Shown: piece by piece, positions 3,356-51,947 of the stretch | Position numbering within the stretch: position 1 is the first letter of the stretch | Layout: each line of letters begins with the position of its first letter | Source of the DNA: Nemertoderma westbladi | Taxonomy: Eukaryota; Animalia; Xenacoelomorpha | Direction of reading: 5' to 3' | NCBI GenBank assembly: GCA_032718475.1 | Contig: JAUCBJ010007119.1 | Span: 5,793-69,792 of the forward strand | DNA: 64,000 nt | The notes under the pieces: generated by a model | Seen by the model: the letters and a program-made list of their open reading frames with translations, nothing else | Told to the model about the DNA's origin: nothing | The model's database searches: none | Translations under genes and position numbers: made by a program

Positions 3356-3356
3356 G

Positions 3357-8392: not shown

Positions 8393-8403
8393 ATAACTGT
8401 TAT
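8393..8403 (-). promoter_or_regulatory. Non-tRNA primer-binding-site position of copy 1 (ATAACAGTTAT)
   Basis: Directly abuts the 5' LTR end with no TGG. Identical in copies 2 and 3. Complementary to the LTR motif at 9143-9153. Confidence 0.6.
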
Positions 8404-18030: not shown

Positions 18031-19204
18031 TGTTCGCGCTTTTAGACCTTTAGCAGTTTAACCTGCCAAATTTAGGTGTCTTCTAGGTTATAAATCGACT
18101 TTAGCCTATGACGAGTATTTGATACACTACATTAGCCGAAGCCAGCCTATGCGCGACCATTCACCCGCTGGATATACCCGGGAGACTGGATTCGGAAGCT
18201 CTAACCTTATTGCGATGTAGGCCTACTGTATTATTCGATTGATCGTTAATATATAATCTCTGACCAATATTATTCACTTTCGGGAAATATTAACAGTTCC
18301 TTTAGGACGTGGCTCTCTAAGTATGTAAACAGAGTTATGACTTACACTAAACACAACGGGATGGTTATTGATTCACGTATAAAGCGCATTCTTTAGGAGA
18401 AGCTTTGTTATCTGTCACAGTCATGCACACTACCGCACAATGCTGCACACCGATCTGCCGACCTTCACTAATTTTAGTCACATATAAAGAGAACAGCAAC
18501 CGACACATGTAGTGCCTATGAAATAGCATTAGATTCACTCCAAAACCAATATAATGTAAGTCGCAATTGCTATATGTAACCGGTCTCTTACCTTCAGTAT
18601 ATCAAGAAGATTGGGGTTTTATGATTATTTATCGATATTATCCAAATATAACAATATTCCATCAACTGATACAATTAATAACCGACAGTAAATAGCAGTA
18701 AAATAATGCGGTGTTTGTAGGTGACAATATGATTTGATTTGGCAGTTTGTGAATTGATAACAGTTATATGTTTCTATGATCAAAGCCGTTCTAATGTTTG
18801 GCTAAAGTCTGCAACACAGAATAATTCCACAGCCGATGTTCTGGCATCAGGAAAAAAGGTAAACATAAACCATAACGCATTGCGCGATTTCCCGGAGGCT
18901 TCTGTACAAATAAAATGAAAATCGCTCTGATTGGTCGACCGAACAAAGAACAAAGAAAAAGTTACACGTGTACATATCAGCTGATAGATGTCGTCATCTG
19001 AACTTATACTGTACTAAGAGTATTTTGGCGTATTGCGACATAAAATTGCTAGTTATGTCCGCTAAAGTACACATACAGAAGAAATGGCTTTTTATGTCCA
19101 CTAAAACACCGGTACAGTAAGGAAACGGCTTTTTATGTCCGTTAAAACACCTACAGAGTACTTTGCGGGGAAAATAACCAGCTAATTCCGCAAAAGCCTT
19201 TACA
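18031..19204 (-). repeat. 3' LTR of copy 2
   Basis: Direct repeat of 35592-36765. Confidence 0.97.
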
Positions 19205-19212
19205 CCGCTCCC
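19205..19212 (-). promoter_or_regulatory. Polypurine tract (GGGAGCGG); same sequence at 39039-39046 in copy 3
   Basis: Purine-rich run immediately upstream of the 3' LTR on the minus strand. Confidence 0.7.
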
Positions 19213-21104
19213 AGAAAATGGGATTTAATTCTATAAAATATAAAAAATCCCAGTTTCTAAAATATAAAAATACTCTAAACAGTTAGTCTTTCTTGCGCGG
19301 ACGGCATTTACGCAGTTTTTTGAGGCTAGCAAGAGTCCTTTTCTCTTTGGGGCGAGCCACTTTACTAGGAGGGCTATAACTCCTGGGTGAAGGGTGCAAT
19401 ACAATTGCATCAGAAGGTTTAGGATTACGGTCGGTGTATCCACCGGTCGAGGTACCTGGTTGATCGATATCAACTTCAGTGGAGCGAGGTCTAACGGCCT
19501 TTAGAGCGCGTCTTAGGACAGCAGCTCCTACTGGTCCCTGACGAGTCATCTGGACAATAGCGGTAGGTGGACCGCGAGTGGTGAGAAACTTCCTCGGTTT
19601 AATGGTTCTTTCCAGCTCGCGTTCTCGGGCTCGATATTCGTAGGGCCGTCGATGTACTTCCTGTAACTCAGGGTGCGAGTTGATGAACAAATCGCCATAC
19701 TCAGGGTCTTGACGGATGAAATTGGTCAAATTGTATGAATTAATATCGTTAGGATTGATGTTCCTGAGATATTTATGAACAAATTTGGTGGAAATACACT
19801 CACCTACACGCTTCATTAGTTCGTAACTCGGTGTGCGCGATTTTTGTTCAACAGATGCGAATAGATAAGGATGGAATGCGTAAACTCCTTCGTAGGCGCG
19901 TCCAGGGTAATAGCGATGGCGTGACTCACAATGTAAATCCGCATTCGCTTCCCAAGCTCGGATGTAGCGCAGGGTAATCATCTCATCTACGCTTTCCAGA
20001 TCGCGGTTAAAAGGGCAATCAAAACTGGCATGTCCTTTAAGTTGACAATGATGGCATTGAGTCATAAATTGGGGGCAGACTGCGAAAATGTGCGAGTTAT
20101 TGAGTCTGCAATACGCACAATAGATCTCCATCATCGGTTGTTCATGGAAATAGGAGCAGGGTACGTCTGAGTCCATAGGGGTGAAATGATCTCTCGATGC
20201 GCATAATCGGCAACGTTTTCGAGAAACATAGTTGGCATGCCGATAATCGTATGCGGTGAGACATTGTGGACCTTGATACCATTCCAAGACGTAGTCGTTA
20301 TCGCTGCTCCGGGGCACTGTAGGTTGAATCTCCTCAGATTCTAAGCATATTGGTTCGTCTTCCAATTGCATAGCTGAGGTAGGTGCGGCTGTCTCCGCAA
20401 GCAAACCCACTGTCTGAACTTCCACGACAGAATAACCCGTGGGTATTCGAGGTCTTTGTATAACAGATGAATGTAAGTTCTGTATACAAACGTCCTTGAA
20501 AAGGGCGAATCCCGCGCTGTCTAACTTCTCCGCAGCTGAGTCTCTTAGGCTGAGCTTGGTCAGAGCGCGGTCCTTGAACTGACTATCAACGTTACGGAAC
20601 GGAGTCAGAAAGCGCCTGAAACATTCGAAGCAGATTAATTTATTGTGTTCATCTAGCTTGGCGAGTTTGGTTCCAAGTATTAAGGGATGGGCGCGTATGG
20701 TACGACTGCACACATCGGCTAGCCAACCGGCAAGTGCGGCGTTTTCAAAGATCGTGTATATAGCTAAGGAGGGACGAAGTGGAACACTCATAAAGCTATA
20801 CACGGCGCCAGGTGCGGTCAATGGTCCGTCAAAGTATAATCCAGAATAATGATCTCCATATACTTGTTGGTAGTTGATAGGATTTCCAACCTTGAAATTC
20901 CATCCGTATTCTTATACATTTATTATAGGAAGGGATCTAGGGGTCTTAACCTCTAATGACAAGTTTATTTTACCGAAAATAACTTATCTTTTATTGGCGC
21001 AATTGTAGGACTAATCCCATCACATGCGTACTTTTTAACAGGGTAGTGTACAAATTTAGAAACCGCGTAATTTTTCTTGAAATTAATATCTCATATCTCT
21101 CCAA

Positions 21105-21147
21105 ACCACGTACGCGTTTCGACCTTACTGGGTCTCATCAGCGTGGT
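21105..21147 (-). ncRNA. Type I hammerhead ribozyme (minimal, palindromic stem III)
   Basis: ACCACG-CTGATGA-GACC(CAGTAA)GGTC-GAA-ACGCGT-A-CGTGGT: all core nucleotides and stems I and II are present. Confidence 0.85.
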
Positions 21148-21255
21148 GTCGGATTCGAACCTGGGACCTCGAGGTGGAAGCCGAGACTGGGTGAGGTGGG
21201 GGCCTAGTGGTTGTAGTCTCGGCTTCCACCTCGAGGTCCCAGGTTCGAATCCGAC

Positions 21256-21298
21256 ACCACGCTGATGAGACCCAGTAAGGTCGAAATGCGTACGTAGT
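21256..21298 (+). ncRNA. Type I hammerhead ribozyme, mirror copy with two substitutions
   Basis: ACCACG-CTGATGA-GACC(CAGTAA)GGTC-GAA-ATGCGT-A-CGTAGT. Confidence 0.75.
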
Positions 21299-24200
21299 TT
21301 GGAGAGATATGAGATATTAATTTCAAGAAAAATTACGTGGTTCCTAAATTTGTACACTACCCGGTTAAAAAGTACGCATGTGATGGGATTAGTCCTACAA
21401 TTGCGCCAATAAAAGATAAGTTATTTTCGGTAAAATAAACTTATCATTCGAGGTTAAGACCCCTAGATCCCTTCCTATAATAAATGTATAATAACAAACA
21501 CCTCGATAAATACAGCTTGCCAACCAACACATTGTTACTATCAATAATCCGTATTCTTGAAAGGCAAGATGTCCGATGGAGGTTCGTTGTACTTTAGTAA
21601 TGCCGCTGGGTGTATTTGCATACATAGTGCGGAAGAAACCTCGGCCTTCTGCCCAGGGAGCAATCAGCTGAGTATCGACGAAAGGATATGGAATGTTCTC
21701 CATGTTCCCGTTGTATGGCCGCCAGTGATGGTAGAGAGCAGAGGAAAACCTATGTTGCATTCTGAAATATTCAGAAATACGATCTCAGTAGGAGGATTCA
21801 AACGTTCGAAGACTATCTCCAAATGAATTTATCCCCAGTTATTAGGGGGGTGAACAACCAGATTTATGACACATAATGGTACCAGTTGTTCACGAACTAT
21901 CCGCGTGTCCTTTCAGTCCTTGTATCACGGTTGTGGACTTAAGGAAATTATTGATGGTTGATTTTCTAATCAACAACGAGAGGGTGGAAGTTGATATCAT
22001 AAATATCAACAGAATGTGACATGGACAGGAGGGGCGGACACCAATATGAGCATCCAGATCAATAGTAAGGGATGAGGAGGTTTAGTAGTAAGTGGTACGA
22101 TCCATACCACGATACCACTAGGATTGGTCGATCGTCTCCCAAAGCTCCGAGCGCGTTGGGAAGAGAAGGTGGGACGAAGTATGTTGTATCTTCAATAGCG
22201 ATGTATAGAGGGATAATGGTAGTAAGGAGGAGGAAGGATATATGGTAGTATCTGTAAGATACCACGATGGACTTGTTTTCCGTTATGTCACCATTCATTC
22301 TTGCTCTTTAATTGCGACACTGATCACAATAATTACAGGAAGACGATGAAATAAGAGAAAATTACAGCCTCCCGAAGGAGACGGCCCGCGAGCACCCGTG
22401 CCCCGGGGAATATTATTCACATTATGGACCCTGGACATTAACGTATGTCTTTTCTCCAGTGATTCTCCTCTACTTGTCTTTACAAGCCTTCTTCCACATT
22501 CCATCTTTCGAGTCTGTTTCGAATAGAATTCTCATGTTCTATTCTCGGTTTATCGTTCAGACTCCACTGGGTATGATATTTAAATAAAACCATTTCCCTT
22601 TCGGTGTCTACATCGTCCGTCTCGTGTAAATCGATAGGATGGCCAGTAGTTAAGAATTCCATATACGTACCATTACGATGCGTATAGCGAGCGGTGAATT
22701 TTCTATAGTCCAATTCACGCGTAAGTTGCTCCTGGGACATTGGCGGTTCGATATAACGACCATCGTCCTCCGTAGTAGTTGGACCAGCGTCGCCGCGTAT
22801 CAAGCTATCAACAAACGCTTGTAACGGTAGAGTATATCGCTCCCTGATACCAAGATCATCTTCTATCAACTCAGTCATATCTGCTATATGAGTTTATTAA
22901 TATTATAATAAATTTATATTTAGGCTAGCGGGCGTCGCTGCCTACCCCTCTCTGCCCCCGGACAGTGCAAGATCCTCAGCGCTGATGTACCATCGTCGCT
23001 GTGTTTTTCGCCAACGTAGTAGCTACACAACGACAACAATAACCAGCACAAGTCACTCCACTGTCCGTCCCAAAGGCTTAGATTTACTTCAGGTTCTTGC
23101 TGCAGAGTTAGGGCTACTTTCACAATTGCGACTCGCTACTGTAAACACACTTTAGTAGTAACATTCACCTATAAACGCACAAATTCCACACAACTGTCAC
23201 AAATTGTACACATTCGGGCCATTGGTCCGTTAGTCAGTGCCTTCCAGAATGCCACGTTATTATTATGTATCCTTGGATACTAGCAGTGTGCTATTTATTC
23301 CCTATGCTATTCAATGGGGCAAGCTTTCTATTGTTCTTTTAACTCACTTCTAATTCTAGCGTGGTTGTTGCTATGGTGACATTATGGAAAGCTAGCAGTA
23401 GAATTAGGGTAATTCTCATGCATACAGATCTGGGATGCTATTTAATAGTAATTCTTTAATTGTCAATATCCCCTTTATACATGATTTTATGAATTTTATC
23501 GGCTATTGACTATATATTGGAGATTCTCGCACACTAATACACTTAATAGGGCGAATCTCCGCTCCCATGATCTATTAATTAATGTAATTTTGGGAATATT
23601 ATAAATTGTATAAAATGACAATTTATCAAATTCATTAACAGAGATGAATTAGAATTTATTCCCGTAAATTTTATTATTTAATATTAAAATAGACACAATT
23701 TTATTCCAGAACATGTCTGGGGACTGGGATCCTTGATTCTAGGAAATTTGTCCTTTTAAGAGTATCGGTAAGTGCTACGATATCTTAATAGACTAGAATT
23801 TTAAAGGATCTGAAATTTGACAGATTTTATAAATATTAATAGTTAATATTTAAGATGGGCACCGGTTTATTCCAGAACATGTCTGGGGACGTTAACCATT
23901 GATTCTAGAATTTTGTCTTTCAAGTATATCGGTGGGTGCCGCGATATCTTAATCGACTAGAATTACAGATGGTCAAAGGGTTTAACAGATTTATTTGCGT
24001 TGTACGCTACTGTTAAAGGGACATCACGCTACTATATGTATTATTTAATATATGGTATGAGAGCAATATCGCAAGAAGCAATGTCAGTGAGAAGAGGCAA
24101 GTCGTTTCCAAGGTCTACCCAGAGCTTGGTTTAGCCGAGACACGAGGATCTGAATTTTGCATTCCTAATACTCTACTTACCAATAATACTTGAATATAGT

Positions 24201-24519
24201 AGGAGCTTTATTGTACTTTAATAAGTATGGACATTTCATCTTACTGTAGTCACGTATTTATAATGTACTATGGACAGTAAGGAAAGAGAAAAAGAATTAT
24301 TTCTCGCCGTCGCACTAAATATATAATATAGAAGTAATTAAGTAATAAACGCAAATATATATATGGCACTAATCTACTAAATAATCGCTAAAATAACATT
24401 CTACTAAATAAAATTAAAGAAAACGATTATAATAAAATTACATAATAATACATACCTAAATATAAAAATAATGAAGACAGATATCAAATAATATAGTCAC
24501 ACACCCACTCCAGACGCTG

Positions 24520-27500
24520 TCACGTTGGGGAGTCCCTAGATGTTTGTTGGATTAGAGAGGTGGTCGTGGGAAGAGTATCTTGCCTTCCATAGTTTCCGGA
24601 AAGTTCTCTGTCTCTTTCCAGTAAACATAAACGACCAACTGGGCGATTGAGCTGCTGCGTCTCGAAGACAATTCCCGGTTTCTTAAAGTTGCCTCGCATG
24701 ACAACGAGTTCTACCGATCGCACCAAACCATCATCCGAGATATGAGTCTCGATGATACGACCTGTCTGCCACCGCTAACGTGGAAGATCTGAATCCACAA
24801 TAAGTACCATGTCTCCTGCGCTCACGTTTTCTTGCTGCGCAAACCACTTAGTTCGAAGTTGTAGCGTGGGCAGATAATGTTTTTCGAAATGGTCAGGGAA
24901 ACGACGGGATAACAACTGCATAAGTTGCCAAGTTTGCCGGCAGTATTCGTCTCCGTCTGTGATTTCCGATCGTGGGAGCATGGCAACAGGTTTCTTCAAT
25001 AGGAAGTGCGCGGGTGTTAGCGCTTCCAGGGAATCGGGACTCGATGAGACTGGCATAAGCGGCCTCTCGTTGAGATAGGCGGCGATTTCCTCCATTAACG
25101 TCCGCAAAAGTTCATCGGTGAGATACGCGCGGCACGGCACTATAAAGTGAAATGCGGTCTTCACGCTCCTGATTAATCTCTCCCAACTTCCTCCCCACCA
25201 AGGGGCGTCGGCGGCGTTGAAGGTCCAGCTAGACGCTGTTACCCTTAGCTGATCGTCCACCTGTCTTTGGTTCCAATCTTTGATGTAAGCTTTGATTTCA
25301 TTGTTGGCACCAATGAAGTTCGTTCCCTTATCAGATCTCATCGTGTTACTAGTTCCAAAGCGAGCGATCTGTCGGCGTAAGCTCAATAGGAAGCTGTTAG
25401 TAGATAAATCGTTCACCATATCGAGATGGATAGCTCTACAAGTCATATAAACAAAGATGACACACCATCTCTTGACTATAGTCCTAGCACGATATACTTA
25501 AATAGGGCCAAATAAATCTACACCGGTATTAGTAAAGGGTGGTTCATAGAAGCTTAATCGTTCCCTAGGTAATTCTGCCTCTCGCTGTGTTAAAGGCCTA
25601 CTGAATGCTTTCCTACAGGGTATGCAGTTCCTAAGAACTTGGTTCAGAGCTCTACGGGGTTTATAAAAATAATAGCGAGTTCGAATTTCGCTAAGAACTC
25701 GTTCTCTACCAGCATGATAAAGTTTGCTGTGAACATCTACAATCATCTTGATTTGTATTTCAAGATTTCTAATGAGTATGGGAAACTTAGTGTCAAAGGA
25801 TAATGGAGCATTAGTTAGTCTTCCTCCAACACGTATTAACCCATCTATCATTGTGTTAGAGAAACGATCCCTTAAGTGCATCTGTGGATTTCTCAACAAC
25901 AGGAAATACTTATCGGAATCCTCATAGCATTGCAGGAGTCTCAGCATCTGCTTATTGGTTTCTTCATGCTCCTGGTCGCTTGCGTCCTTCTGGGCTCCTC
26001 CCCGAGGTGCACCCACGAGGCGGACGCTGTCCCACCACCCTTGGGGCCAGTCTGACTCCGTTTTTATCAGACCGGGCCGGAGGGTAGCCCGATGCTTCCC
26101 GGGTTCAATTTTCAATCCCCCGATCACACCGGCACAGCTCGTCGGTGTAGCCAGATGGTCGGCTACTGTCAACTTACTGTGACCTGACTGTACATTGAGC
26201 CAACTCAGAGAGTCAACCGGCGGGTGGACCAGTCGATAGCGATCGAGCATCAAGGTCGCCCTTGAGCCAAACCGACGGTCTTGTCCCAAGTGGGCTTGCG
26301 CTACCCAACATGGAATTTTGACATGTTTTCACCCGCCTCGCCGGCAGTATTGAGGGAAAGTCAGTTCCGCAAACAATACTGACTAGCTCAAAAGCTAGGA
26401 ACAAGTAACCACTTACCAGTCACTGTACACGTGTACTCAACAGATGTTCACAAATCAAGTACACAATAGTAAACACATAATTGGACACATACCATGCACA
26501 CACAGAGGACATAATCGGGAAAGACGAATGGGTCACAAAATCAGAGGGGACAAAATTGTATCGACTAATAAAAGAGTCGAGAGTACCTTATTTTGCCGTC
26601 AGGGCAAAATAACTTTGTGTGCACAAAGTATGCTGGGGCGCAGTAAAGATATTGTGCTACTAATACCAGCGGCGTCTGGACCAACCGGCAAGGGTTCCCA
26701 TACTCACTCGCAGTGGCCACACATACAATCACGTGTACTCACGCACCCACAGCAACAGAAAGCTCATCTCAGACCCAAACACACCCCAAAGACCAATCAG
26801 CTGAACATGGAGACAATAACATATAGTATCAAAAAAACGGAACAGCTGACGGTCAATGGCACACATCCAAGCCCCAACGCAAGCTAACTGCCACTGGTCG
26901 CCCACATACAAAACACAGTTCACACCATATAACACCACAAATCACGCCATGCCACCACCCCTACTGTGTACAGGACTGGCAGTACGGCAACAGGCCGACT
27001 AGACGGTACCACGGCACCATGTTGATTCATGGTTCGCTAGACACGAGGGCCTTCAGTAACTCCCTTGCACCATAGAAGAGATTTAGTGTGCCCCCAGACC
27101 CTCACGAGTCCGCCGCCGCCTGTTTCAGTCACCCCTATAGAGACCTCACCTCCTTGGGTAACTGATCTTCTCCTTCAGAAACCTGTCGGATATCTTGTAT
27201 TTGGGAAGATCTTTAACAACATGGACCTGCGCAGATGTCAGTGGAGCGGTATCACTAGTGGTCTTCGTCCTGGAGTAGTGATGATGAAAACATCGCTTTA
27301 AATATATAACGGCCTTACAGAGCCGATTCCAGGAACTATAATGATGTATCGCTCTCTGCAGGAGAGGTGAGAGTCCTTGCGAGACATCTGGTATTCCAGA
27401 TTTCCAATCCCTCTCTCTGATTTCCACAACAGACTTATTTGTGGCTGTGGGTTTCGGATCCAAAGCGTCGTCTCCGGAAGTGTGTAGTACAGACAGATCT

Positions 27501-30500
27501 ATCACAGGTTTAAATAACTTCGATTTACTCGCCCGGATTTTAGGTTTTACTTTCTCCGCTCCCTTGGCCTGTCTAATCTCCGCTGTAGTAAGATGAGGAG
27601 GCCATTCATCCTCTTCTTTGCTTAGGAAGTCGGGTCCACCTAACCAGTCTGGAGTATCTATCAGTTCTTGTGGAGTTGCTCCCCTGGAGGCGATGTCTGC
27701 TGGATTAATCGTTCCGGGGCAATGTCTCCATTGATCTATCTTCGTGCGACTAAGTATAATGGCTACTCTGTTGGTAACGAAGACGCTGAACTGACAGACT
27801 TCATTGGTTATATACTCCAACACGAGTAAAGCATCGGTCCAATAGACAGTTTTTTCCAGTGGGTAGTCGATCTGTTCTGTTACATTCCGGCCGATGGCTG
27901 TAGCATATAGAGCCGCCTTTAACTCCGCTCGAGGAACTTTCAACTTGTTGTTTATCAAGGCCTTAGAGGTAACCAAGGCGATCTTAATTCCATCCGGAGT
28001 TTCAACTCTCAGGTAGGCTACTATACCTATTCCCATATCGCTGGCGTCTCCAAACACATGGAGTTGATAGGAATACGTAGGGAGAACATGACCAAAATAT
28101 GAACAGGTAATTATAAAGTTCTCGATGGCTGGTAGAGAATCTTCCCATTTCATCCACTTCCTTAATAGTTCTCCCTTAAGTGGATCGTCCCATGAGTGGT
28201 TTTCAAGCCACATTTGTTGTACTAAACTCCGAGCAATCAATATAACTGGGCTAATAAATCCCAATGGATCGAAATAAGTGCTCAGGATACTTAAACAAAT
28301 CCGTTTAGTCCGAACTGGATTATCTCACTGTTTTAGCTGGAAAAACAGGATATCTCTCTCTGTGTCCCATTTCAAACCAAGTGTCTTGGTTTCTGGAAGA
28401 TCGTCTTTGATCAGGTCTAGATCTTTAACTCCTCGATCTTCTACCGGGATCGATTCCAGAAACTCACGGGAGTTGCTGGTGAATTTAGTTAATCGAAATC
28501 CACCTCTTTTTAAGCACTCTACCGTTCCTTTGGCGACATCAATGGCTTCTTCCACTGATGGGAGGGACTGTAAATTGTCGTCCATGTATATATCCCGTTT
28601 GATGTTGTCGATCACCTCTTTAGAGAAGGCGTCCCGGTTGTCATCAGCAGTGGTTCGCACCACTGAGCAGGCGTTTGAAGGGCTTGAGATGATCCCAAAA
28701 GCCTGGATGGTCATCCAGTACTCCACCAGTTTCTGGTTGAGGTCTCCTTCAGGCCACCACAGAAATCGTAGGCTGTCTCGATCCCTATCCAGCGCCTTGA
28801 CTTGTAAGAACATGCCTTCTATATCAGAGGCGAAAGTGATTGAATATTGTCGTAATCTTAAGAGTATTCCCAACAAGGATTGGAGTAAGTTGGGTCCTGG
28901 CAACAACTCGGAATTAAGGGATTGGCCCATGTAGAGGGCGGAGCCGTCAAATACTACCCGGACTTCATTGGGTTTACCGGGTTTGGGAACATAATGATGT
29001 GTTAGATAGAACGTTCTCTCAGTTATGGGTGTTTCCTCCGGTACTCGCTCCGCATATCCCTTGTTAATAAATTTCTTCAACTGAGTCTTGTACATTTCCT
29101 TAGCTGAAGCATTTGCCGTAAGGCGTCGATGTAGTTGCGCAATTCTTTTCTCCGCCAAGGGTCGGTTGTTTATAAATTTAGGTTCTCGCTTTCGAAATGG
29201 TAGACCGATTTCATATCTACCTTGATCTTTAAGAAAACGTGTAGTTGTCTCCTGGATCTGCTTGGCTCTTTCTTCTTCTACCGATAGGGCCTTATCGTAG
29301 GAATTGTGCTCTACACCCTCTTGAGTAAAGAATCGTACGGCGTGTTCATCCCGAGTCTTCGCGTTGTAGCGATCTATTACGTCATTCAGTTCGTCGTTAT
29401 AGTCGACTTGTCCTGATGGACGAATGAGTTGACATAGGTTCACTTGGTTTTGCCAAGTTTCGTTTTCCGTAAGGAGGTCAATGTTATTCTCCTCGTCGAA
29501 GAGTTGGTGGATATCGTCATTATCTGAGGAGTATGGTGTTCCCTCAGTTGGGTCGTCCACCTCACTGCTCTCCGCTTCCCATTCACTTACTTGGTAGACC
29601 CGTTCTTTGGGTAACCTTTCCATGAGAGTTCTACGGGAAGGGCCAGTAAAGTACCAACCTACTCTAGTTCTTCCCGCATAGGCTTGTAGTGGTTGCGGTT
29701 GAGCAGGCCGTTTCTCCAATGTCTCAAGCACCTCATGCGCATTTTGGCCGATGAGTATTTGCACTCCAGGGTAGTCTGTGTTGAATCTAGGTATCTCAAG
29801 CTGCTGGGTGAAATCGTCCTCCTCCCAGTTATAAGGTTCCACTTGGTTGGTAGCGAAGTTCTTTATCGCCACCATTTTTACTGACCTTATACTGTGTTCT
29901 CCTAGTTCATCCTGGGGGGTGGACAACGCACCTACATAGTAATCTGCAATTACTGTAGATTTCCAAACCTGCATAATTCCTGACATGTTTAACTTAGTTC
30001 GGAACTTGGGTTGTCCAGCAAAGATGTCTTCGGCTAGTTCTTTGTCAATGAATGTTCCTGTGCTGCCGGAGTCAAGAAGGGCATTCACTATATAACTTTT
30101 TCGTGGCCCGTGGACTCTCAACTGCACTACGGGAAATTCTCGGATTCCTACATTTGAAGTTGGTGCTTTCCAAGATGGTTGTCGGTCAGGAGTAGTTAGG
30201 GGGGCTCACTGTCGGTGTCCTTTTCATACGTAAGTGCTCGATACACTGCGGTATTTATTAGGTAACAGGATTCGTTTTTGTCGGAGAATTCGTCCGTATA
30301 GAATCCTTCCATCTCAGAACTTTGGTCAGTGTCGTTCACATCACTGAATTGGACATGTAGTTCGGACTCACTTACCTGACTCGGGCTGTTTCGTTCGAAT
30401 TCAGTGTGCAACAAGATATGATGTTTTGCGCCGCACTTTGCACACCTTGCGTCGGAGTAACAGGTTCGCCGTTGGTGTCCTTGTCTGAGGCAATTATAAC

Positions 30501-33500
30501 ACAACCGCTTATCCCACATGACTTCACGTCTATCCTTTAATGATTTCTTTAGGAATTCATCACACACATTCAAACGGTGGGGCCCGTCACACAGCGCACA
30601 TTTCGGTTTGATGTTACTTACTTTACTTTGAGTAACATTGTGCACACTCATTCTTTCTTCGGGCTTTCTTACATGAATTCTCTTAGGAGACGTAGGAGGA
30701 GTTTTTCTTACCTGTTCTCTCCTGTCATTGATTCGAGACTTGAATTTACTTACGTCTTTAGGCGTTTTGTTGACATAATAAGATCTTTCAGCGTCTTTCC
30801 CGCTGTCCTCTTCTTGAGAAGCCTGGCTTTCGCCATCGTCGGTATAACACACTGGTGTTACCTTTCTCCTAGAAACGGGTTTCTCACTTACCTTATTTTC
30901 CGGTGTCTTCTCTCTGGACTGCTTTAGGAGCTGTAATTTTACTTCTCCATCTAAGAATTACATGAGATCAGCCATGGTAGGGTCTCGTCGTTGTTGTTCC
31001 ATCATATATAACACTTTCTTATCCCAGCGTGTACCTACTCCACCCTTTGGTAAAGTAGAGGCCACGGCTCCAATAACCATAGAACTCTGATATTCATGAG
31101 ACTTACCTAGCCAATCTAATTGTGTACAGATCTCCTGAATCTCATCGGAAAACTCTATAATCCCGCTGCTAATGAACTTTCGGGGCGCTACCAATTTTGC
31201 ATACAAATACCTAGCTATGTTATTCCTATTACCATACCTGATGTTAAGAGTATCCCAAACTTGTCTTAATCCATCTGGATGTCCAATAAACTTTAACGCC
31301 ATTAACTTGGGAGATCCTTCCAAGCACTCGATGAGGAATCTAAGTTTCTCTCCGATAGATAACACAGAGTTCTGTATGTTATCTATGTAATATTCATTAA
31401 AAGGTAACCATTTCATCTCATTTCCATTGAACTTGACGATCTCACCTACCTTTACCACTTGACGGGCTTCGGTTCTAGCCATTTGACACGTAAAACTTTC
31501 TTGGGCCATTGTGTTATTTAATATCGAGCTATCGGTATATAAATTTCTCGGATTATGATCAGGTCTATATGGAATATCATTGTCAACAGGTTTATAATTA
31601 CCCTTAATAGGGTTTACTATAGGAGTTTCTACTTCACTAGCAGTATAGATGCGTGTAGGCTCCACACCTTGCGCATGAAATACTTCAGACCTAACAGGTT
31701 GACACATTGTTACCGGGGTTGGTGGTATACCCCTTTGGGTATTCACCAACCTATCGCGTTCCAATGCGATACTCTGCTGCACCTCTTGCAACTCTAACCT
31801 ACTTTCCCTTACCGTGCCCTTGAACTGCTGAACAGTTCCTTCCATCTCCCGGACCTGCTGAGAGGAGCACTTACGGTGTTCCCTCAACTGCCCGAGCAGA
31901 AGACCCATCTCTCGTCGTCCCTCCTATACCCACTCTACCGCCGAAGCGGGAGCCGCCAACATAGTAGCGGGCGGACGAGGGACAACGGGCAACAAATCAT
32001 TGATATTTCGCTCGGAGTCCAGGACAGGAACCGTCTCAGGGGTTGTTCTGCTGGGCACAGGTAGTTTTGTGCTGTGCAAAGGGAATTTAGAGGTAGGTTC
32101 TGGGAGTACAGGTGTCTCTATCACCGAAGGGGTGGCTTCGAGAACAGGCCTAATTATTTCAGGCTCATCTACTATAGTAGGGAGTCTTTCTATTTTAATA
32201 ATTTGGTCTGTGGGTTCTGTACTACCTAAGTCTGTGCTAGCTAGTTGCCTTCTAACAGCTGGGGGCAAATCAGGCAATTTCTGACGGTGGGACATTCTTC
32301 TACGCCTACTTAGACGAGACCTACTTCCTCCGCCTTCAGGATCGGTGGTATCGCCTTCATCAGAGGATGTAAATCCCTGTCATTTGGGAGTAGATCGACT
32401 CATCATCTGCATTTGACTAGCTGTTAACTGTTTATTTATGCAGTCTTGATTCTCTTGAATATTTTCCAACTCTAGTTGGGTGGTCTCTTCAGATGCTATT
32501 CGTTCCGCTTCTGCCACCGCTATCTTTCTTTCCGCTTCTATTGCTGCAGCTGCCGCTTTTGCCTCTGCCGCTGCTTCTGCCGCCTTTCTTTCCGCTTCTG
32601 CCGCTGCCATTGCCGCTGCTGCTGTCTTTCTGTCTTCTATACGTTTTTTCTTTACTTGTTCTTCTTGGACCCTAGCGATGCGGAGTCTTTCATCAAATTT
32701 AGCTTGGTTCGCAGCTAACATTTCCGCATCGATTGCATCCAACACAAGCTTGGCTCCTTCACTATTAGGGCGAAGTCCAGACAGCCGTCTCCTCAACTCT
32801 TCGTCACCTAGGAATCATTGATAGTCTGACAGATAGATGTCAATAGCGTCTCACCCGCTGGAACCAAGTCTTTACGGCAACTTGCAACGACGTGTCTTGT
32901 CTTCTTTTCGAAGCTTCCTCAAAGGCCGATAGGATTAGTCTGATTCTTAGAATTCTTTCTCTAACTTGATAAAGCAGCTCTTCCTGCTCTTGAGGTCCTT
33001 GGGGTTGTCGAAACAGTTGTTCCTCTAATCGCTCTAAAGAGCTGAAGAATCCCTGTACATATCCTGCTGCCGACCTCTTCCACACAGCTGGATCACTAGT
33101 GTCTTTTGTCACTCCCACCCTGTGTATGTCTTCCCAGGCAGCTTCCGATAAGTCAAACGGGAGTCCGGGTCCGGGGAAGTTCCATTGCGACTCGACAATA
33201 GACTTCAGTTCCTCCCTTGTGTATCCCGCATAACTGTCCTTGGTCGATCGCTTACTTCTCACCCAATCAATTTGGTGTTCCTCCACCGCAATCAATACCC
33301 TAGTGAGTACGGCTGCAGGAAGAATGAGAAGGGGATCCGAATAAACCGCATCTGCCATCTTTGCTCCTCGCTCGGGTGTCAACTCTACAGTATCCGAACT
33401 ACTGGAGCTATCGGGCCGCTGAGAAATAAGTTCTTGGCTAGGGTGTTGCTGCTGTTTAACAGCTGCTTCCTGGTCCCGCTTGACCTGAGCCCGAGTGCCT

Positions 33501-33676
33501 ATGATAGACCTACGGTGTTGGACTAGCCTAGGGTCTGATAGCACTACTGGAGGGATGATCTTTCTTACAGTAGGAGGTGAGTTGAACTTTGGTCTCACAC
33601 GTTCCACACTCCTGTCTGGGTCACAGATGGTTGTATCTAGGAGACTGTCTGACAGGTTTTGCTTTGTGTCAGACAT
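24520..33676 (-). pseudogene. Copy 2 gag-pol polyprotein, fragmented by stops, frameshifts and a group I intron
   Basis: Gag with a triple knuckle (CALC..H..C, CYNC..GH..C, CAKC..HH..LH), protease ALLDSGS, RT YMDD, RNase H VFGDAS...NPADIASRG, integrase HAG..CIPC / GVDLFGP / SDKGTNF / GGSWERLI, and a DUF5641-like tail. Confidence 0.93.
25977..27159 (-). ncRNA. Group I intron (ID-like core, no ORF), 1183 nt, in the RNase H-integrase linker of copy 2
   Basis: The 5' exon ends in U, paired with G in P1 (TCAGTT|ACCC : GGGTGACTGA). P3 is GGCGGGTG/CACCCGCC and P7 is GACTG/CAGTC, with S element AATGTACAGTC. The intron ends in G, and excision restores KISY-QEHEE in frame. Confidence 0.85.
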
Positions 33677-35580
33677 GTTTGTTTGTACAGTTGAATGCCT
33701 ACTGCTATATTACAGTTAAAGCAAGTCTAGTAATTCAGTATCAACTGTTAGCCTAGTAATTAATTACCGATATCGTTACTCAGTGTAACGTGATATATTT
33801 ACAATATATTAGAGTACCGGTATACACTTATAGTATATATATAAGTATTATTACAGACTAGGTTTGTCACAGAATACCGGTATATAATTTCAGCGCAAAT
33901 ATATATAAATATATAATAAGCCTATCGTGAATACCGGTATACAGCTTACACTTATAGTATATATAAGTATAATTATAGACTAGAATTAATTACAGAATAC
34001 CGGTATATAATTTCAGCACAAATATATAGAAATATATAATAAGCCTATCGTGAATACCGGTATATCAATTATTTTAGAATAATTGAATTTCTGAAATTTA
34101 GGGTTACTTGGTTACTTTACTTTACTTTATTACTGTTATTTAAGCAGTAGTCCAACTGACATTAAGACCTAATTGTTGTAAGACAGGCCTACTATTTTAT
34201 AAATCGGTTTGAGTTGATTTATAATATATATACCCGTTTAATGGGTTTTTGTCAATATTTGAAATAAATGTTATTATTTCTGGGAAAGAGTCACTACACA
34301 GAAGCTCTACACTCTCAGTGAAGTGCTACTTGTTGGACACTAAAACAAATAATTCTAATTTACCTAAGTTACTTAATACTACAAATTACGTACAATTACG
34401 GGGTGAGATTACAATCTCTAAATAAACACAAAAAATTACACGTACGAATTTTTTTTTAGGGTAATTTTACTAGAAGTCTACAAGCCAGCCTAACAAAGGG
34501 TTAGAATATCTGGTTCTTACAAACGGACAGGATACTACGGTATTTGAAAGTAATAAAGCAGTAGTAAATATACTGCGTTGTCCAGATAGGAAAAATACCA
34601 CCGTCTGACGACTTATAGCCATAGCGCTATAAGTACTACGTTATGTATCACGGAGTGTTCCTACCTAGAAGTTAATTACCGCGGCCTAACAGAGCCAACG
34701 TGCCTATCAACCACTTTACAACACAAATATACTGCCTACACACTAATTACCTTCGGAAAGCACTGTACACTAAACCCTAAATTAGGTACAAGTACTTATA
34801 CAACAAATAACCAGCAGTTAAAAATACTTGAACAGCTAAATGAACCACGGTATCTGCCGGAGTGACCAACGCATAAAATCTCCAGTCTTTACCTACGCCA
34901 AACAGCCCTGATGTAGTACCGGGGTTAATTTAACTATAACGGTATGGATAACAAGCACAATTACTGTAGGAATAAACTTGGGGGTATGAATGTTGCGAAT
35001 AATCGCATAAACTCTGAATAATAAATATTACGCTACCCTTACAGACTACACAAACAAAATACAGACCAAACGCTGGCAGACTACTATCAAGCCTAAATAA
35101 ACTACAGTATATGCAGACTCCGAAATGGTTAGTTAGTATGCGTTCTAACCGAGTAGTACGACTTATTCTTTCAGGGGGGATTTACCTTACAGCACTGGAT
35201 GCCCACCACTTTCCTAACTAGTACTTTATCGGACATACACTCTACATACACTGCAATCTCTTCAGACTTAACAACAGTCAGACAACAGTCTAGCCTACAA
35301 ATTACCTGTACAATCTGAGCAGGCTTACACGTCTTCTGCTCAATATTAACTTACAAATAAATAAAACTGACAGAAATAGGCCTAAGTAAAATCCCAATAA
35401 AAAACCAGGCGTCCCCGATTAAATATTAAGACCTACCGGTATATAATTATCTAAATCGAATAATATTGCTGTACTTGTACTGCTGTAAGTACCGGTTCGG
35501 GTAGTTAGGCAGTCAGGCCTACTGGTTGCCGGTCGACCAGTACTTTTGCCTTTTTATTGCCTACGTGCAATAAAGAAGCT

Positions 35581-35591
35581 ATAACTGTTAT
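35581..35591 (-). promoter_or_regulatory. Non-tRNA PBS position of copy 2 (ATAACAGTTAT)
   Basis: Abuts the 5' LTR and is complementary to 36318-36328. Confidence 0.6.
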
Positions 35592-36765
35592 TGTTTGCGC
35601 TTTTAGACCTTTAGCAGTTTAACCTGCCAAATTTAGGTGTCTTCTAGGTTATAAATCGACTTTAGCCTATGACGAGTATTTGATACACTACATTAGCCGA
35701 AGCCAGCCTATGCGCGACCATTCACCCGCTGGATATACCCGGGAGACTGGATTCGGAAGCTCTGACCTTATTGCGATGTAGGCCTACTGTATTATTCGAT
35801 TGATCGTTAATATATAATCTCTGACCAATATTATTCACTTTCGGGAAATATTAACAGTTCCTTTAGGACGTGGCGCTCTAAGTATGTAAACAGAGTTATG
35901 ACTTACACTAAACACAACGGGATGGCTATTGATTCACGTATAAAGTGCATTCTTTAGGAGATGCTTTGTTATCTGTCACAGTCATGCACACTACCGCACA
36001 ATGCTGCACACCGATCTGCCGACCTTCACTAATTTTAGACACATATAAAGAGAACAGCAACTGACACATGTAGTGCCTATGAAATAGCATTAGATTCACT
36101 CCAAACCCAATATAATGTAAGTCGTAATTGCTATATGTAACCGGTCTCTTACCTTCAGTATATCAAGAAGATTGGGGTTTTATGATTATTTATCTATATT
36201 ATCCAAATATAACAATATTCCATCAACTGATACAATTAATAACCGACAGTAAATAGCAGTAAAATAATGCGGTGTTTGTAGGTGACAATATGATTTGATT
36301 TGGCAGTTTGTGAATTAATAACAGTTATACGTTTCTATGATCAAAGCCGTTCTAATGTTTGGCTAAAGTCTGAAACACAGAATAATTCCACAGCCGATGT
36401 TCTGGCATCAGGAAAAAAGGTAAACATAAACCATAATGCATTGCGCGATTTCCCGGAGGCTTCTGTACAAATAAAATGAAAATCGCTCTGATTGGTCGAC
36501 CGAACAAAGAACAAAGAAAAAGTTACACGTGTACATATCAGCTGATAGATGTCGTCATCTGAACTTACACTGTACTAAGAGTATTTTGGTGTATTGCGAC
36601 ATAAAATTGCTAGTTATGTCCGCCAAAGTACACATACAGAAGAAATGGCTTTTTATGTCCACTAAAACACCGGTACAGTAAGGAAACGGCTTTTTATGTC
36701 CGTTAAAACACCTACAGAGTACTTTGCGGGGAAAATAACCAGCTAATTCCGCAAAAGCCTTTACA
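35592..36765 (-). repeat. 5' LTR of copy 2
   Basis: Direct repeat of 18031-19204, followed by TSD GGGTA. Confidence 0.97.
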
Positions 36766-37897: not shown

Positions 37898-39038
37898 TGT
37901 TCGCGCTTTCAGACCTTTAGCAGTTTAACCTGCCAAATTTAGATGTCTTCTAGATTATAAATCGACTTTAGCCTATGACGAGTATTTGATACACTACATT
38001 AGCCGAAGCCAGTCTATGCGCGACCATTCACCCGCTGGATATACCCGGGAGACTGGATGCAGAAGCCTTGACCTTATTGCGGTGTAGGCCTACTGTATTA
38101 TTCGACTGATCGTTAATATATAATCTCTGACAAATATTATTCACTTTCGGGAAATATTAACAGTTCCTTTAGGACGTGGCGCTCTAAATATGTAAACAGA
38201 GTTATGACTTACACTAGACACAACGGGATGGCTATGGATTCACGTATAAAGCGCATTCTTTAGGAGATGCTTTGTTATCAGTCACAATCATGCACACTAC
38301 CGCACAATGCTGCACACCGATCTGCCGACCTTCACTAATTTTAGTCACATATAAAGAGAACAACAACCGACACATGTAGTGCCTATGAAATAGCATTAGA
38401 TTCACTCCAAAACCACTTTAATGTAAGTCGCAATTGCTATATGTAACCGGTCTCTTACCTTCAGTATATCAAGAAGATTTGGGGTTTTATGATTATTTAT
38501 CGATGTTAACCAAATATAATAATATTCCATCAACTGATATAATTAATAACCGACAGTAAATAGCAGTAAAAATGCGGTGTTTATAGGTGACAATATGATT
38601 GGTGTTGAGTTGGTATGGTTTGTGGTTTGATAACAGTTATACGTTTCTATGACCAAAGAAAACTAATGTTTGGCTAAAGCCTGAAACACAGAAATTCCAA
38701 AGCCGGTCTTCTGGCTGTGGACAAAATACACATACTGACTGAATTGCATGAGTTTCTGTATACAATCTCCAACACAGAGTCAAAAAACGCTCTGATTGGT
38801 CGACCGAACAAAGAACGAACAAAGAACAAAGAAAAAGTTACACGTGTACATATCAGCTGTTAGATGTCGTCATGGTAACTACACTGTATCAAGAGGATTT
38901 TGGCTTATTGCGACATAAGATCGCTAGTTATGTCCGCTAAAGTACACATACAGAAGAAATGGCTTTTTATGTCCGTTAAAACACCTACAGAGTACTTTGC
39001 GGGGAAAATAACTAGCTAGATCCGCAAAAGCCTTTACA
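37898..39038 (-). repeat. 3' LTR of copy 3 (lacks one 41-bp U3 repeat unit)
   Basis: Direct repeat of 50766-51947. Confidence 0.95.
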
Positions 39039-39116
39039 CCGCTCCCAGAAAATGGGATTTAATTCTATAAAATATAAAAAATCACAGTTTCTAAAATATA
39101 AAAATACTCTAAACAG

Positions 39117-40668
39117 TTAGTTTTTCTTGCGCGGACGGCATTTACGCAGTTTTTTGGGGCAAGCAAGAGTCCTTTTCTCTTTGGGGCGAGCCACTTTACT
39201 AAGAGGGCTATAACCCTTGGGTGAAGGGTGCAATACAATTGCATCAGAAGGTTTAGGGTTACGGTCGGTGTATCCGCCAGTCGAGGTACCCGGTTGATCG
39301 GTATCAACCTCAGTGGAACGAGGTCGAACAACCTTGAGAGCGCGTTTTGAGACAGCAGCTCTTACTGGTCCCTGACGGGTCGTCTGAACGATAGCGGTAG
39401 GTGGACCGTGTATAGTGAGAAATTTCCTCGGTTTGATGATTCTTTCCAACTCGCGTTCTCGGGCTCTATCGGAATCGATATGCTTCTCCTCGAGCTGATT
39501 TTCCTCCGCTTGTTGTTGAAAACATTTGTCCAAACTCTTGCAGAAAGTAGAGCCGTCCAAGTTCAATATCTTCTTAGAGATTCTGGATTTTCTGATCGAA
39601 CTGAGACAAAGCTAATTCGTCCACCGCTTGGACCTGTTGCTGCAATTTACGTTTCTCTAAACAATTGTAGGTTCCTTTTCCGATCTTTTGAAGAATAGTG
39701 TCCAACACGTTTCGTACAACTCTCTCCTCCGCCTTGGTGACAAGTTGTATCGGGTTAAACCGGGACAATGATACGGTTGAATGACGATATTAGATGTCCG
39801 CGTCCCAATCCGGCTAGGTAAGATTGGCGAATATTTAGGGAGCCCACAACCGGAGTGCCACCGACTAATTATTCGGGTAACACTAGATCTTTGAACAGTG
39901 AGTACAGTTCGGGAGGATCCGTGATACTATTAGGATCAAGAGTCTGAAGTCTAACTAGGAAATGAGGAGGTCTGACTGAGTACTCCGGAACTCTGATCAT
40001 AGGTTTATTTAAGGATCGTTTGAGTCGAGCGAGCGTAGGTGATACATCGAACAAGTTTCGCTCGAAACTCCCGTAAATATAGCGAGTAAAACCGTGTTTA
40101 AAGCAACGTCTCCGCGGATGTTTATGTCTTTCCGTTTGTTGGTTGGGTCTTGGGCATTCATCGCAATAATACCAAAGACGCACATCTTGTAGGGGAAACG
40201 CGGGTGATATTTATTCGGTTTTACAATGTTTCTCTCAAGAATTCCAAATATACGTTGGAGTTACCGCGTTTATTCGGTTCTTTAACGTCTTCTCTTTCGA
40301 GTCGATTTCGAATAGAATTTTCGCATTCGATTCTCAATTTATCGTTCCGACTCAGCTGGGTATGATATTTAAATAGGACCATTTCCCTTTCGGTGTCGAT
40401 ATCGTCCGTATCGTGTAAATTTGATAGGATGGCCAGTAGTTAAGACGTCCATATACGTACCATTACGATGCGTATAGCGAGCGGTGAATTTTCTATAGTC
40501 CAATTCACGCGTAAGTTGCTCCTGGGACATTGGCGGTTCGATATAACGACCATCGTCCTCCGTAGTAGTTGGACCAGCGTCGCCGCGTATCAAGCTATCG
40601 ACAAACGCTTGTAAAGGTAGAGTATATCGCTCCCTGATACCAAGATCATCTTCTATCAACTCAGTCAT
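39117..40668 (-). pseudogene. 3' accessory ORF of copy 3 (frameshifted; shares both ends with copy 2, different middle)
   Basis: The MTELIEDDLG... start and ...RARERELER...KKLRKCRPRKK end are shared with copy 2. The middle contains YYCDECPRP...HKH...CFKHG. Confidence 0.65.
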
Positions 40669-42398
40669 ATCTGCTACATGAGTTTATCAATATTATAATG
40701 AGTTTATATTTAGGCTAGCGGGCGTCGCTGCCTACCCCTCTTGGCCCCCGGACAGCGCAAGATACTCAGCGCTGGTGTACTTTCGCCGATGTGCCTATCG
40801 CCAACGTCGTAGCTGCACAACGACCACAACAACCAGCGCGAGTCACTCCACCGTCCGTCCCAAAGGCTTAGATTTACTTCAGGTTCTTACTGGAGAGTTA
40901 GGGCTACTTTCACAATTGCGACTCGCTACTGTAAACACACTTTAGTAGTAACATTCACCTATAAACGCACAAATTCCACACAACTGTCACAAACCGTACA
41001 CATTCGGGCCATTTTTCCGTTAGTCAGTGCCTTCCAGAATGCCACGTTATTATTGTGTATCCTTGGATACTAGCAGTGTGCTATTTACTCCCTATGCTAT
41101 TCAATGGGGCAAGCTTTCTATTGTTCTTTAACTCACTTCTAATTCTAGCGTGGTTGTTGCCATGGTGACATTATGGAAAGCTAGCAGTAGAATTAGGGTA
41201 ATTCTCATGCATACAGATCTGGGATGCTATTTAATAGTAATTCTTTAATTGTCAATATTCCTCTTTATACATGATGTTATGAATTTTATCGGCTATTGAC
41301 TATATATTGGAGATTCTCGCACACTAATATACTTAATAGGGTGAATCTCCGCTCCCATGATCTATTAATTTATGGAATTTTGGGAATGTTATAAATTGTA
41401 TAAAAATGACAATTTATCAAATTCATTAAAAGATGAATTTAAATTTATTCCCGTAAATTTTATTATTTAATATTAAATAGACACAATTTTATTCAAGAAC
41501 ATGTCTGGGGACTGGGATCCTTGATTCTAGGAAATTGGTCTTTTTAAGAATATCGGTAAGTGCTACGATATCTTAATAGTCTAGAATTTTAAAGGATCTA
41601 AAATTTGGCAGATTTTATAAATATTAATAGTTAATATTTAGGATGGGCACCAGTTTATTCCAGAACTTGTCTGGGGACGTTAACCACTGATTCTAGAATT
41701 TTGTCTTTTAAGTATATTGGTGGGTGCCGCGATATCTTAATCGACTAGAATTACAGATGGTCAAAGGGTTTAACAGATTTATTTTGCGTTTTACGCTACT
41801 GTTAAAGGGACATCACGCTACTATATGTATTATTTAATATACGGTATGAGAGCAATATCGCAAGAAGCAATGTCAGTGAGAAGAGGCAAGTCATTTCCAA
41901 GGTCTACCCAGAGCTTGGTTTAGCCGAGACACGAGGATCTGAACTTTGCATTCCTAATACTCTACTTACCAATAATACTTGAATATAGTAGGAGCTTTAT
42001 TGTACTTTAATAAGTACGGATATTTCATATTACTGTAGTCACGTATTTATAATGTAATACAGACAGTAAGGAAAGAGAAAAATAATTATTTCTCGCCATC
42101 GCACTAAATATATAATATATAAGTAATTAAGTAATAAACGCGAATATATATTGCACTAATCTACTAGATAATCGCTAAAATAACATTCTGCTAAATAAAA
42201 TTAAAGAAAACGATTATAATAAAATTATATAATAATACATACATAAATATAAAATAATAAAAACAAATATAAAATAATATAGTCATACACCCACTCCAGA
42301 CGTTGTTACGTTGGGGAGTCTCTAGATGTTTGTTGGATTAGGGAGGTGGTCGTGGGAAGAGTATCTTGCCTTGCATAGTTTCCGGACAGTTCTCGGTC

Positions 42399-48300: not shown

Positions 48301-48567
48301 AGGGGGTTGTTGCTGTTTGACAGCTGCTTCTTGATCCCGCTTGACTTGAGCCCGAGTGCCTATGACAGACCTACGGCGCTTCACTAACTTTGCAAATTGC
48401 AAAATTGCTTCTACTAACCTAGGTTCTGACACAGCTACTGTAGGGGTTGCCTTTCTTACAGTAGGAGGGGTCTCAGACCTCGGTCTGGGATTCTCTATAC
48501 TCCTATCTGAGAAACAGACTGTTGTTTCTAGGAGACTATCTGACAGAGTTTGCCTTGTGTCAGCCAT
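42399..48567 (-). pseudogene. Copy 3 gag-protease plus pol remnants
   Basis: 930-aa gag (48567-45775), a frameshift into a 483-aa knuckle-protease ORF (45793-44342), then the intron and RNase H/IN remnants. Confidence 0.9.
43058..44355 (-). ncRNA. Group I intron (ID-like core, no ORF), 1298 nt, in the protease-RT linker of copy 3
   Basis: P1 is AAAGGT|ACCT : GGGTGCCTTT with U-G at the splice site. The core (43267-43420) matches the copy 2 intron. Excision restores MERLPKERVYQ exactly as at the empty site in copy 2. The terminal base is A, not G. Confidence 0.82.
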
Positions 48568-50754: not shown

Positions 50755-50765
50755 ATAACTGTTAT
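50755..50765 (-). promoter_or_regulatory. Non-tRNA PBS position of copy 3 (ATAACAGTTAT)
   Basis: Abuts the 5' LTR and is complementary to 51498-51508. Confidence 0.6.
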
Positions 50766-51947
50766 TGTTCGCGCTTTCAGACCTTTAGCAGTTTAACTTG
50801 CCAAATTTAGATGTCTTCTAGATTATAAATCGACTTTAGCCTATGACGAGTATTTGATACACTACATTAGCCGAAGCCAGTCTATGCGCGACCATTCACC
50901 CGCTGGATATACCCGGGAGACTGGATTCGGAAGCTTTGACCTTATTGCGGTGTAGGCCTACTGTATTATTCGACTGATCGTTAATATATAATCTCTGACA
51001 AATATTATTCACTTTCGGGAAATATTAACAGTTCCTTTAGGACGTGGCGCTCTAAATATGTAAACAGAGTTATGACTTACACTAGACACAACGGGATGGC
51101 TATGGATTCACGTATAAAGCGCATTCTTTAGGAGATGCTTTGTTATCAGTCACAATCATGCACACTACCGCACAATGCTGCACACCGATCTGCCGACCTT
51201 CACTAATTTTAGTCACATATAAAGAGAACAACAACCGACACATGTAGTGCCTATGAAATAGCATTAGATTCACTCCAAAACCACTTTAATGTAAGTCGCA
51301 ATTGCTATATGTAACCGGTCTCTTACCTTCAGTATATCAAGAAGATTGGGGGTTTTATGATTATTTATCGATGTTAACCAAATATAATAATATTCCATCA
51401 ACTGATATAATTAATAACCGACAGTAAATAGCAGTAAAAATGCGGTGTTTATAGGTGACAATATGATCGGTGTTGAGTTGGTATGGTTTGTGGTTTGATA
51501 ACAGTTATACGTTTCTATGACCAAAGCCTACTAATGTTTGGCTAAAGCCTGAAACACAGAAATTCCAAAGCCGGTCTTCTGGCTGTGGACAAAATACACA
51601 TAATGACTGAATTGCATGAGTTTCTGTATACAATCTCCAACACAGAGTCAAAAAACGCTCTGATTGGTCGACCGAACAAAGAACGAACAAAGAACAAAGA
51701 AAAAGTTACACGTGTACATATCAGCTGTTAGATGTCGTCATGGTAACTACACTGTATCAAGAGGATTTTGGCTTATTGCGACATAAGATCGCTAGTTATG
51801 TCCGCTAAAGTACACATACAGAAGAAATGGCTTTTTATGTCCACTAAAACACCGGTACAGTAAGGAAACGGCTTTTTATGTCCGTTAAAACACCTACAGA
51901 GTACTTTGCGGGGAAAATAACTAGCTAGATCCGCAAAAGCCTTTACA
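50766..51947 (-). repeat. 5' LTR of copy 3
   Basis: Runs TGTTCGCG...TTTACA, followed by TSD AACTG. Confidence 0.95.

Follow-up and report, generated by a model that had tools for sequence, protein, structure and literature searches.

A group I intron at two sites of a BEL/Pao retrotransposon family and its probable movement through element RNA

Introduction

Can a group I intron reside in the pol gene of an animal nuclear retrotransposon, and if so, by which route does it reach new sites? The question is raised by an insert in a 64-kb stretch of DNA (the window), which a first-pass annotation had read from the letters as a group I intron inside a BEL/Pao element. According to the relevant sections of two reviews, nuclear group I introns are confined to the rRNA genes of microbial eukaryotes (PMC3679873, PMC10964413); the second of these also mentions non-bilaterians and five shark species. 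Extracts from the description of a 42,459-intron database place animal members only in placozoans, corals and sponges, most of them mitochondrial; this database starts from the Rfam model, the one that misses the family of the window (PMC11835236). A full-text literature search, with subscription papers and preprint supplements outside its scope, yielded nothing published on group I introns within LTR retrotransposons or within protein-coding genes of animal nuclei.

Position and anatomy of copy 1

The insert is read on the minus strand. Its 5′ exon ends in TCAGTT at 27160, the insert itself runs from 27159 to 25977, and its final base is the terminal G (25977); location, preceding exon U and final G are all as the first-pass annotation had placed them. 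The features of this copy are as follows.

27160..27165, minus strand: P1 strand contributed by the 5′ exon, with U as its last base
25977..27159, minus strand: group I intron copy 1, 1,183 nt, between the RNase H and integrase regions of pol
27125..27135, minus strand: internal guide, of which 27130–27125 pairs with the 5′ exon (P1)
27135–27131, minus strand: part of the guide that pairs with the intron start and with 3 nt of the 3′ exon (P10)
27001..27121, minus strand: P2 domain, with closing strands 27121–27116 and 27006–27001
26347..26960, minus strand: T/G-rich non-coding insertion between P2 and P3, without recognisable ORF
26185..26337, minus strand: catalytic core with P3 (26337–26330/26226–26219), P4 (26326–26320/26280–26275), P5, P6, P7 and P8
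26239–26230 and 26196–26185, minus strand: the P7 strands R and S
26040..26184, minus strand: hairpins of the P9 region, including a family-conserved domain (26127–26094)
25977..26035, minus strand: conserved 3′ terminal module, ending in the terminal G

The guide GGGTGACTGA at 27134–27125 folds with the junction to form P1, with a U-G pair at the last exon base; the fold bears out the pairing proposed at first, and the strands of P3, R and S also lie where they had been put. The 3′ 386 nt have a folding z of −3.2. The flanks contain a Pao domain (PF05380) upstream and an integrase zinc finger (PF17921) downstream, and share one phase. When an X is put at the junction, the joined flanks are aligned across it in 14 of the 38 BEL/Pao relatives matched, in gapped alignments of 20–30% identity. 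This agrees with the earlier statement that removal of the insert keeps the pol frame.

P4 pair 3 of copy 1 is mismatched (26324); this pair is invariant in 73 of 73 aligned relatives, and the mismatch occurs in 3 of 105 cores. The first-pass annotation, whose core features stand, had overlooked both this mismatch and a second copy in the window. Both window copies lack a pre-P3 segment that is present in 59 of 88 cores, and both have 600–730 nt of non-coding DNA ahead of P3. In copy 1, this insertion (26347..26960) occupies the place of the LAGLIDADG ORF in a mitochondrial relative (L099). Neither copy contains an ORF or a terminal inverted repeat, and neither encodes a homing endonuclease. 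A 162-aa antisense frame in the insert was considered as a hidden ORF and set aside, having no Pfam match and low Atlas recognition. Searches by tblastx and blastn gave no source for the middle part of the insert.

The 3′ module is matched by a strict pattern in 38 of the 82 cores that have enough 3′ DNA; both window copies carry a variant form, recognised by eye. A reading of this module as an HDV-like ribozyme, also made by eye, was rejected: no P1 partner was found, and in the window the catalytic C position is missing.

Host elements and genomic setting

The intron copies reside in two neighbouring elements, both on the minus strand.

18031..36765, minus strand: BEL/Pao element 1, with LTRs at 18031–19204 and 35592–36765 (1.5% apart) and a 5-bp target duplication
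37898..51947, minus strand: BEL/Pao element 2, with LTRs at 37898–39038 and 50766–51947 (0.9% apart) and a 5-bp target duplication

The assignment to BEL/Pao made at first is upheld by the Pfam domains and the paired LTRs: the hosts contain PF03564, PF05380, PF17921 and PF18701, LTRs of 1.1–1.2 kb and 5-bp target duplications. They agree with Belpaoviridae in gag/pol domains, LTRs and target duplication. They differ in size, being 14–19 kb long against 4–10 kb in the ICTV profile, where introns go unmentioned (PMC8742986). The reading frames of element 1 are interrupted by stops, and internal deletions in element 2 took away the copy-1 site, hence the window has no empty counterpart of that site. 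Along their long shared parts, the two elements are 5–6% different.

Belpaoviridae are characterised as metazoan (PMC8742986), all named protein matches of the pol search are animal, and a bHLH gene, whose sole PDB match is NeuroD1, lies 4 kb from the elements. For these reasons, the window is likely to be animal nuclear DNA, as judged from its sequence.

Several further features of the surroundings are recorded here. The bHLH gene (13076–14264, minus strand) is apparently in pieces and contains a 21-nt coding repeat. Element 1 has about 5 kb of extra DNA 3′ of pol, and near its 3′ LTR lies a 542-aa frame with cysteine/histidine clusters (19283–20911, minus strand) and no Pfam match. Window positions 1–9099 hold a third member of this element family, less close at about 82% likeness; its pol is beyond the window and may hold more sites.

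Copy 2, the empty site and the change of guide

Self-comparison of the window uncovered a second intron copy, which sits in the sister element at another pol site than copy 1.

43058..44355, minus strand: second copy (copy 2) of the group I intron, 1,298 nt long, its pol site lying between protease and reverse transcriptase
44321..44326, minus strand: guide of copy 2, complementary to its own exon (44361–44356)
29606..29621, minus strand: the copy-2 site in its empty form, as present in element 1, with the junction at 29614/29613 and an open pol frame around it

Comparison of the filled with the empty site reveals that no base was lost and none duplicated. The claim that the insert has no target duplication is therefore established at copy 2; copy 1 alone would also be compatible with a 3-nt duplication, since the insert and its downstream exon both begin with ACC.

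Both copies are in sense orientation, in phase, and inserted after U. Their target sites have only few bases in common, and their guides differ at 3 of 6 positions. Each changed base forms a Watson-Crick pair with the new exon, the U-G pair is kept, and P1 has 6 of 6 pairs in both copies. P7 is fully paired in both, and P10 consists of 3 pairs in each.

Overall, the copies are about 90–95% alike, with differences in 15 of 200 columns of the 5′ domain, 5 of 164 of the core and 5 of 205 of the 3′ part. Copy 2 has lesions at P4 pair 2, P6 pair 1 and the terminal G. CpG-type transitions account for 6 of the 10 differences in core and 3′ part, as decay after integration would give. Both genomic copies are now decaying together with their host elements.

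Structure tests across the family

Rfam reports no group I intron in the 64-kb window at any threshold, so that the check with RF00028 proposed at the outset came back empty. It is also silent at 12 related loci (6 viral, plus a set of 8 including mitochondrial nad5 introns of fungal type, with L182 and L019 among them). Since mitochondrial and other members are missed too, the silence on the window is uninformative and reflects a blind spot. Pattern scans retrieved 38 + 31 viral loci, at least 119 metagenome loci and 1 locus in prokaryote genomes. Together with the window, the matches listed comprise at least 133 distinct cores, from giant-virus genes, mitochondrial nad5 and other retroelements. 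A further 16 pattern matches, unlike the family in look, were discarded, as they had no model score. P7 and part of P4/P6 are fixed by the search patterns, and their invariance carries no evidential weight.

For P3, both anchors are found in 101 of the 133 cores among the matches listed, giving 54 distinct rows; 45 of these have all 8 pairs, and the mean is 7.70 of 8, against 5.32 after shuffling. In a covariation set of 73 cores, from which the window copies were left out, 97.2% of the cells of the named structure are paired, compared with 25–44% when partners are slid. In these relatives, 7 of the 8 pairs in P3 vary on both strands, as do 6 of 6 in P8, while P4 and P6 are 99.5% paired and almost invariant, and P7 barely varies either. 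In 30 of 31 rows of the family, the closing strands of P2 pair at 6 of 6 positions, and both strands vary.

P1 could be assessed in 35 cores with a 5′ anchor (33 distinct, both window copies included). A strict match of the guide to its own exon is present in 21 of 33 rows, as opposed to 1.8 ± 1.2 in shuffled data, with a maximum of 7 in 20,000. Among the 12 strict failures, three have G-C as their splice pair, and one or more are due to a false anchor. P10, examined in 17 rows, displays a modest excess (mean 2.35 versus 1.54, matched in 12 of 20,000 shuffles). P9.0 is one pair only in the subclass with the 3′ module, and the terminal G, by a loose pattern, is found in 42 of 54 over the family. 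As for departures at the 5′ splice position, L003, L016 and the second copy of L011 have G-C there together with a different 3′ domain, and L017 and L054 have C-A.

A model (R1), built without the window copies, scores copy 1 at 117.3 bits and copy 2 at 112.8 bits; the next match in the window reaches 11.8. The insert contains a G-binding site with P3/P7 pseudoknot (a G-C pair beside the bulge), P4-P5-P6, P8 and J8/7. The group I architecture first proposed is sustained by covariation across the relatives, by mitochondrial nad5 introns built on the same core, and by a second copy whose guide matches its new site. On this sequence evidence, the insert is a real group I intron.

Hosts of the family

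In giant viruses, the family is found in capsid, DNA polymerase B and RNA polymerase genes. Viral DNA polymerase B, at the YGDTD motif, and the RNA polymerase gene Rpb2 are interrupted by relatives, and both genes should depend on splicing. Mitochondrial nad5 introns with LAGLIDADG ORFs carry the same core, and one family locus has a His-Me endonuclease ORF. Retroelement domains lie beside 8 of the 21 metagenome loci that have any Pfam match (56 loci examined; 2 of the 8 fall under the Pfam cut-off). Gypsy pol genes are hosts at 6 of 126 loci, with introns before protease, in reverse transcriptase, near RNase H and after RNase H; blastx on the 126 loci gave no further BEL/Pao host. A tree of 95 cores places no starred relative with the window pair and hence names no donor.

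Individual loci offer additional detail. In L008 and L019, the intron directly follows YGDTD of viral DNA polymerase B. In L003, L004, L007, L011, L016 and L031, introns sever the final codons of a giant-virus major capsid gene, as assigned by Pfam, which we take to be iridovirus-like from its look. They occupy two neighbouring sites, both of which are filled, in tandem, in L011; with the intron left in, the capsid gene reads into a false C-terminus. Several members are clustered on one viral contig (L009:1–300, L026:1–800, L054:1100–2400).

Other members lie next to genes of a different kind. L088 (351–1077, minus strand) ends just ahead of a histone H3 frame that misses only the first codons, the intron's 5′ end being beyond the contig; here a group I-like intron sits in a nuclear gene of ordinary look. 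L136 is upstream of a CDV3 frame and L147 downstream of a Pho88 frame, each on the same strand and possibly in untranslated regions. The only match in the prokaryote collection (L189:939–1147) is on a 1.3-kb contig of a metagenome-assembled genome and is possibly eukaryotic carry-over.

Comparison with known group I introns

Among the known introns close to it are those of fungal mitochondria: nad5 introns L099, L120 and L130 have a near-identical P4/P6/P7 core and score 93–107 bits, with L099 and L130, though not L120, in the training set of the model. These fungal introns probably belong to subgroup ID, and the window intron may do so too; the link to nad5 backs this label only indirectly. 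ID introns are reported from nad5 (PMC6279837), and PMC8598970 gives no class for the nad5 intron site. In the self-splicing ID1 cob intron of Fusarium, the ORF lies in the P2 domain (PMC10254303), and the window intron likewise has a long insertion 5′ of its core. The window intron differs from the fungal mitochondrial introns by its nuclear retrotransposon host, the lack of an endonuclease, GC-rich extra 3′ domains and a guide re-matched to new sites.

Nuclear rDNA introns share the nuclear setting, and passages in PMC3679873 and PMC3984707 propose reverse splicing for their spread to new sites. However, they are described as residing exclusively in rRNA genes of microbial eukaryotes, whereas the window intron is in a protein-coding retrotransposon gene of a probable animal. 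IStrons combine a group I intron with IS200/IS605 or IS607 and likewise silence an insertion in a coding gene at several sites. They are bacterial, of class IA2, with a fixed target motif and their own transposase (PMC4227781), in contrast to the window intron, which is lodged within a different mobile element, lacks an ORF and carries a guide that varies. Group I introns outside rDNA are also described, in extracts of PMC12220804, from integrated viral elements, namely the endogenous polinton-like viruses of protists. These introns are RF00028 matches in DNA viruses of protists, and their hosts are neither retroelements nor animals; in those extracts, their splice sites and guides go unanalysed (PMC12220804).

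How the intron may move

The guide sequence determines the splice sites of group I introns. The explanation that probably holds for the window is that an endonuclease-free group I intron, predicted to be self-splicing, occupies two sites of one BEL/Pao family and was moved by reverse splicing into element RNA, with the reverse transcriptase of the element completing the transfer. In principle, splicing would keep pol translatable. Transcripts that stay unspliced, or are re-invaded at a guide-matching site, would be reverse-transcribed and integrated; the retrotransposon transcript would serve as both target and template, and the element's own reverse transcriptase and integrase would finish the route. 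The intron would need no protein of its own, because the element would copy and integrate the intron-bearing transcript.

The match of guide and site could come about in two ways: guide variants may choose their own targets, or only spliceable insertions may go on transposing. Matched guides would then be selected through pol staying translatable. The three guide changes may represent stepwise moves or selection among variants; in a sample of two copies, the order of guide change and move is not readable, and three changes are hard to accommodate in one reverse-splicing step.

If the insert were no ribozyme, it could be an insertion of non-autonomous type that made a short target duplication and is like a group I core by chance. 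The absence of an Rfam match and the ACC on either side of copy 1 are what such a reading has in its favour; it is scarcely credible, and already largely refuted, given model scores of 117 and 113 bits where the next match reaches 11.8, the covariation, and an empty site that excludes a duplication at copy 2. It is also very improbable that the intron is real and the setting wrong, either because the window comes from something other than an animal nucleus or because an assembly error produced the two-site arrangement. Members do occur in viruses, mitochondria and eukaryote contigs, but Belpaoviridae are characterised as metazoan (PMC8742986), the named protein matches are animal and a bHLH gene lies 4 kb off; moreover, LTR pairs and 5-bp duplications are present at either element, and a matching guide is not producible by error.

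The other alternatives concern movement as DNA. Under homing, the region between P2 and P3 would once have encoded an endonuclease that moved the intron as DNA and was then lost, the guide adapting later. Mitochondrial members have LAGLIDADG ORFs at that very position, one locus has a His-Me endonuclease ORF, and the window copies carry their 600–730 nt insertion at the same place. Yet this insertion is without protein similarity in copies merely 2–8% apart, which leaves little time for full erasure, and the two target sites share few bases and no long recognition site; homing is thus unlikely here. An equally unlikely origin is IStron-like, in which a transposase supplied in trans moved the DNA and the intron merely makes the insertion harmless. 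IStrons, of which ORF-less copies are known, document that a DNA transposon can carry a group I intron along (PMC4227781); the conserved 3′ terminal module could serve as a recognition end, and relatives also lie beside histone H3, CDV3 and Pho88 genes. On the other hand, IStrons as portrayed there have fixed targets and belong to IA2 (PMC4227781), while guides and targets co-vary here; terminal inverted repeats are absent from both copies, and no transposase family was found among the 125 flanking ORFs scanned. In addition, 20 of the 21 neighbours with annotation share the strand of the intron, though ORF selection favoured that strand.

Reverse splicing into element RNA is therefore retained as the favoured route. 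As stated in sections of PMC3984707, four to six matching bases can be enough for an intron to be inserted by reverse splicing, and fixation needs reverse transcription; the full route is, in the same text and in that of PMC3679873, without direct evidence. For the family as a whole, the balance tips only slightly towards a broader reading: a protein-free group I family, invisible to Rfam, in giant viruses and in eukaryotic retroelements including animal ones, which would transpose as guide-programmed RNA by reverse splicing at guide matches and be fixed by the reverse transcriptase of the host.

Implications

The family looks mobile, set in a new niche and undescribed, as far as sequences can tell. 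Since it interrupts essential genes unseen by Rfam, gene models of giant viruses may be wrong. Its naturally variable guides would be a source of trans-splicing ribozymes. Spread at the RNA level has long been proposed, but for want of the reverse-transcription step it has remained without direct evidence; an intron within a retrotransposon transcript would supply this step and make the route testable. The reading as guide-programmed RNA, if true, would be a natural, testable instance of the reverse-splicing pathway, and the presence of the family in animal retrotransposons, if true, would overturn the confinement of nuclear group I introns to rRNA genes.
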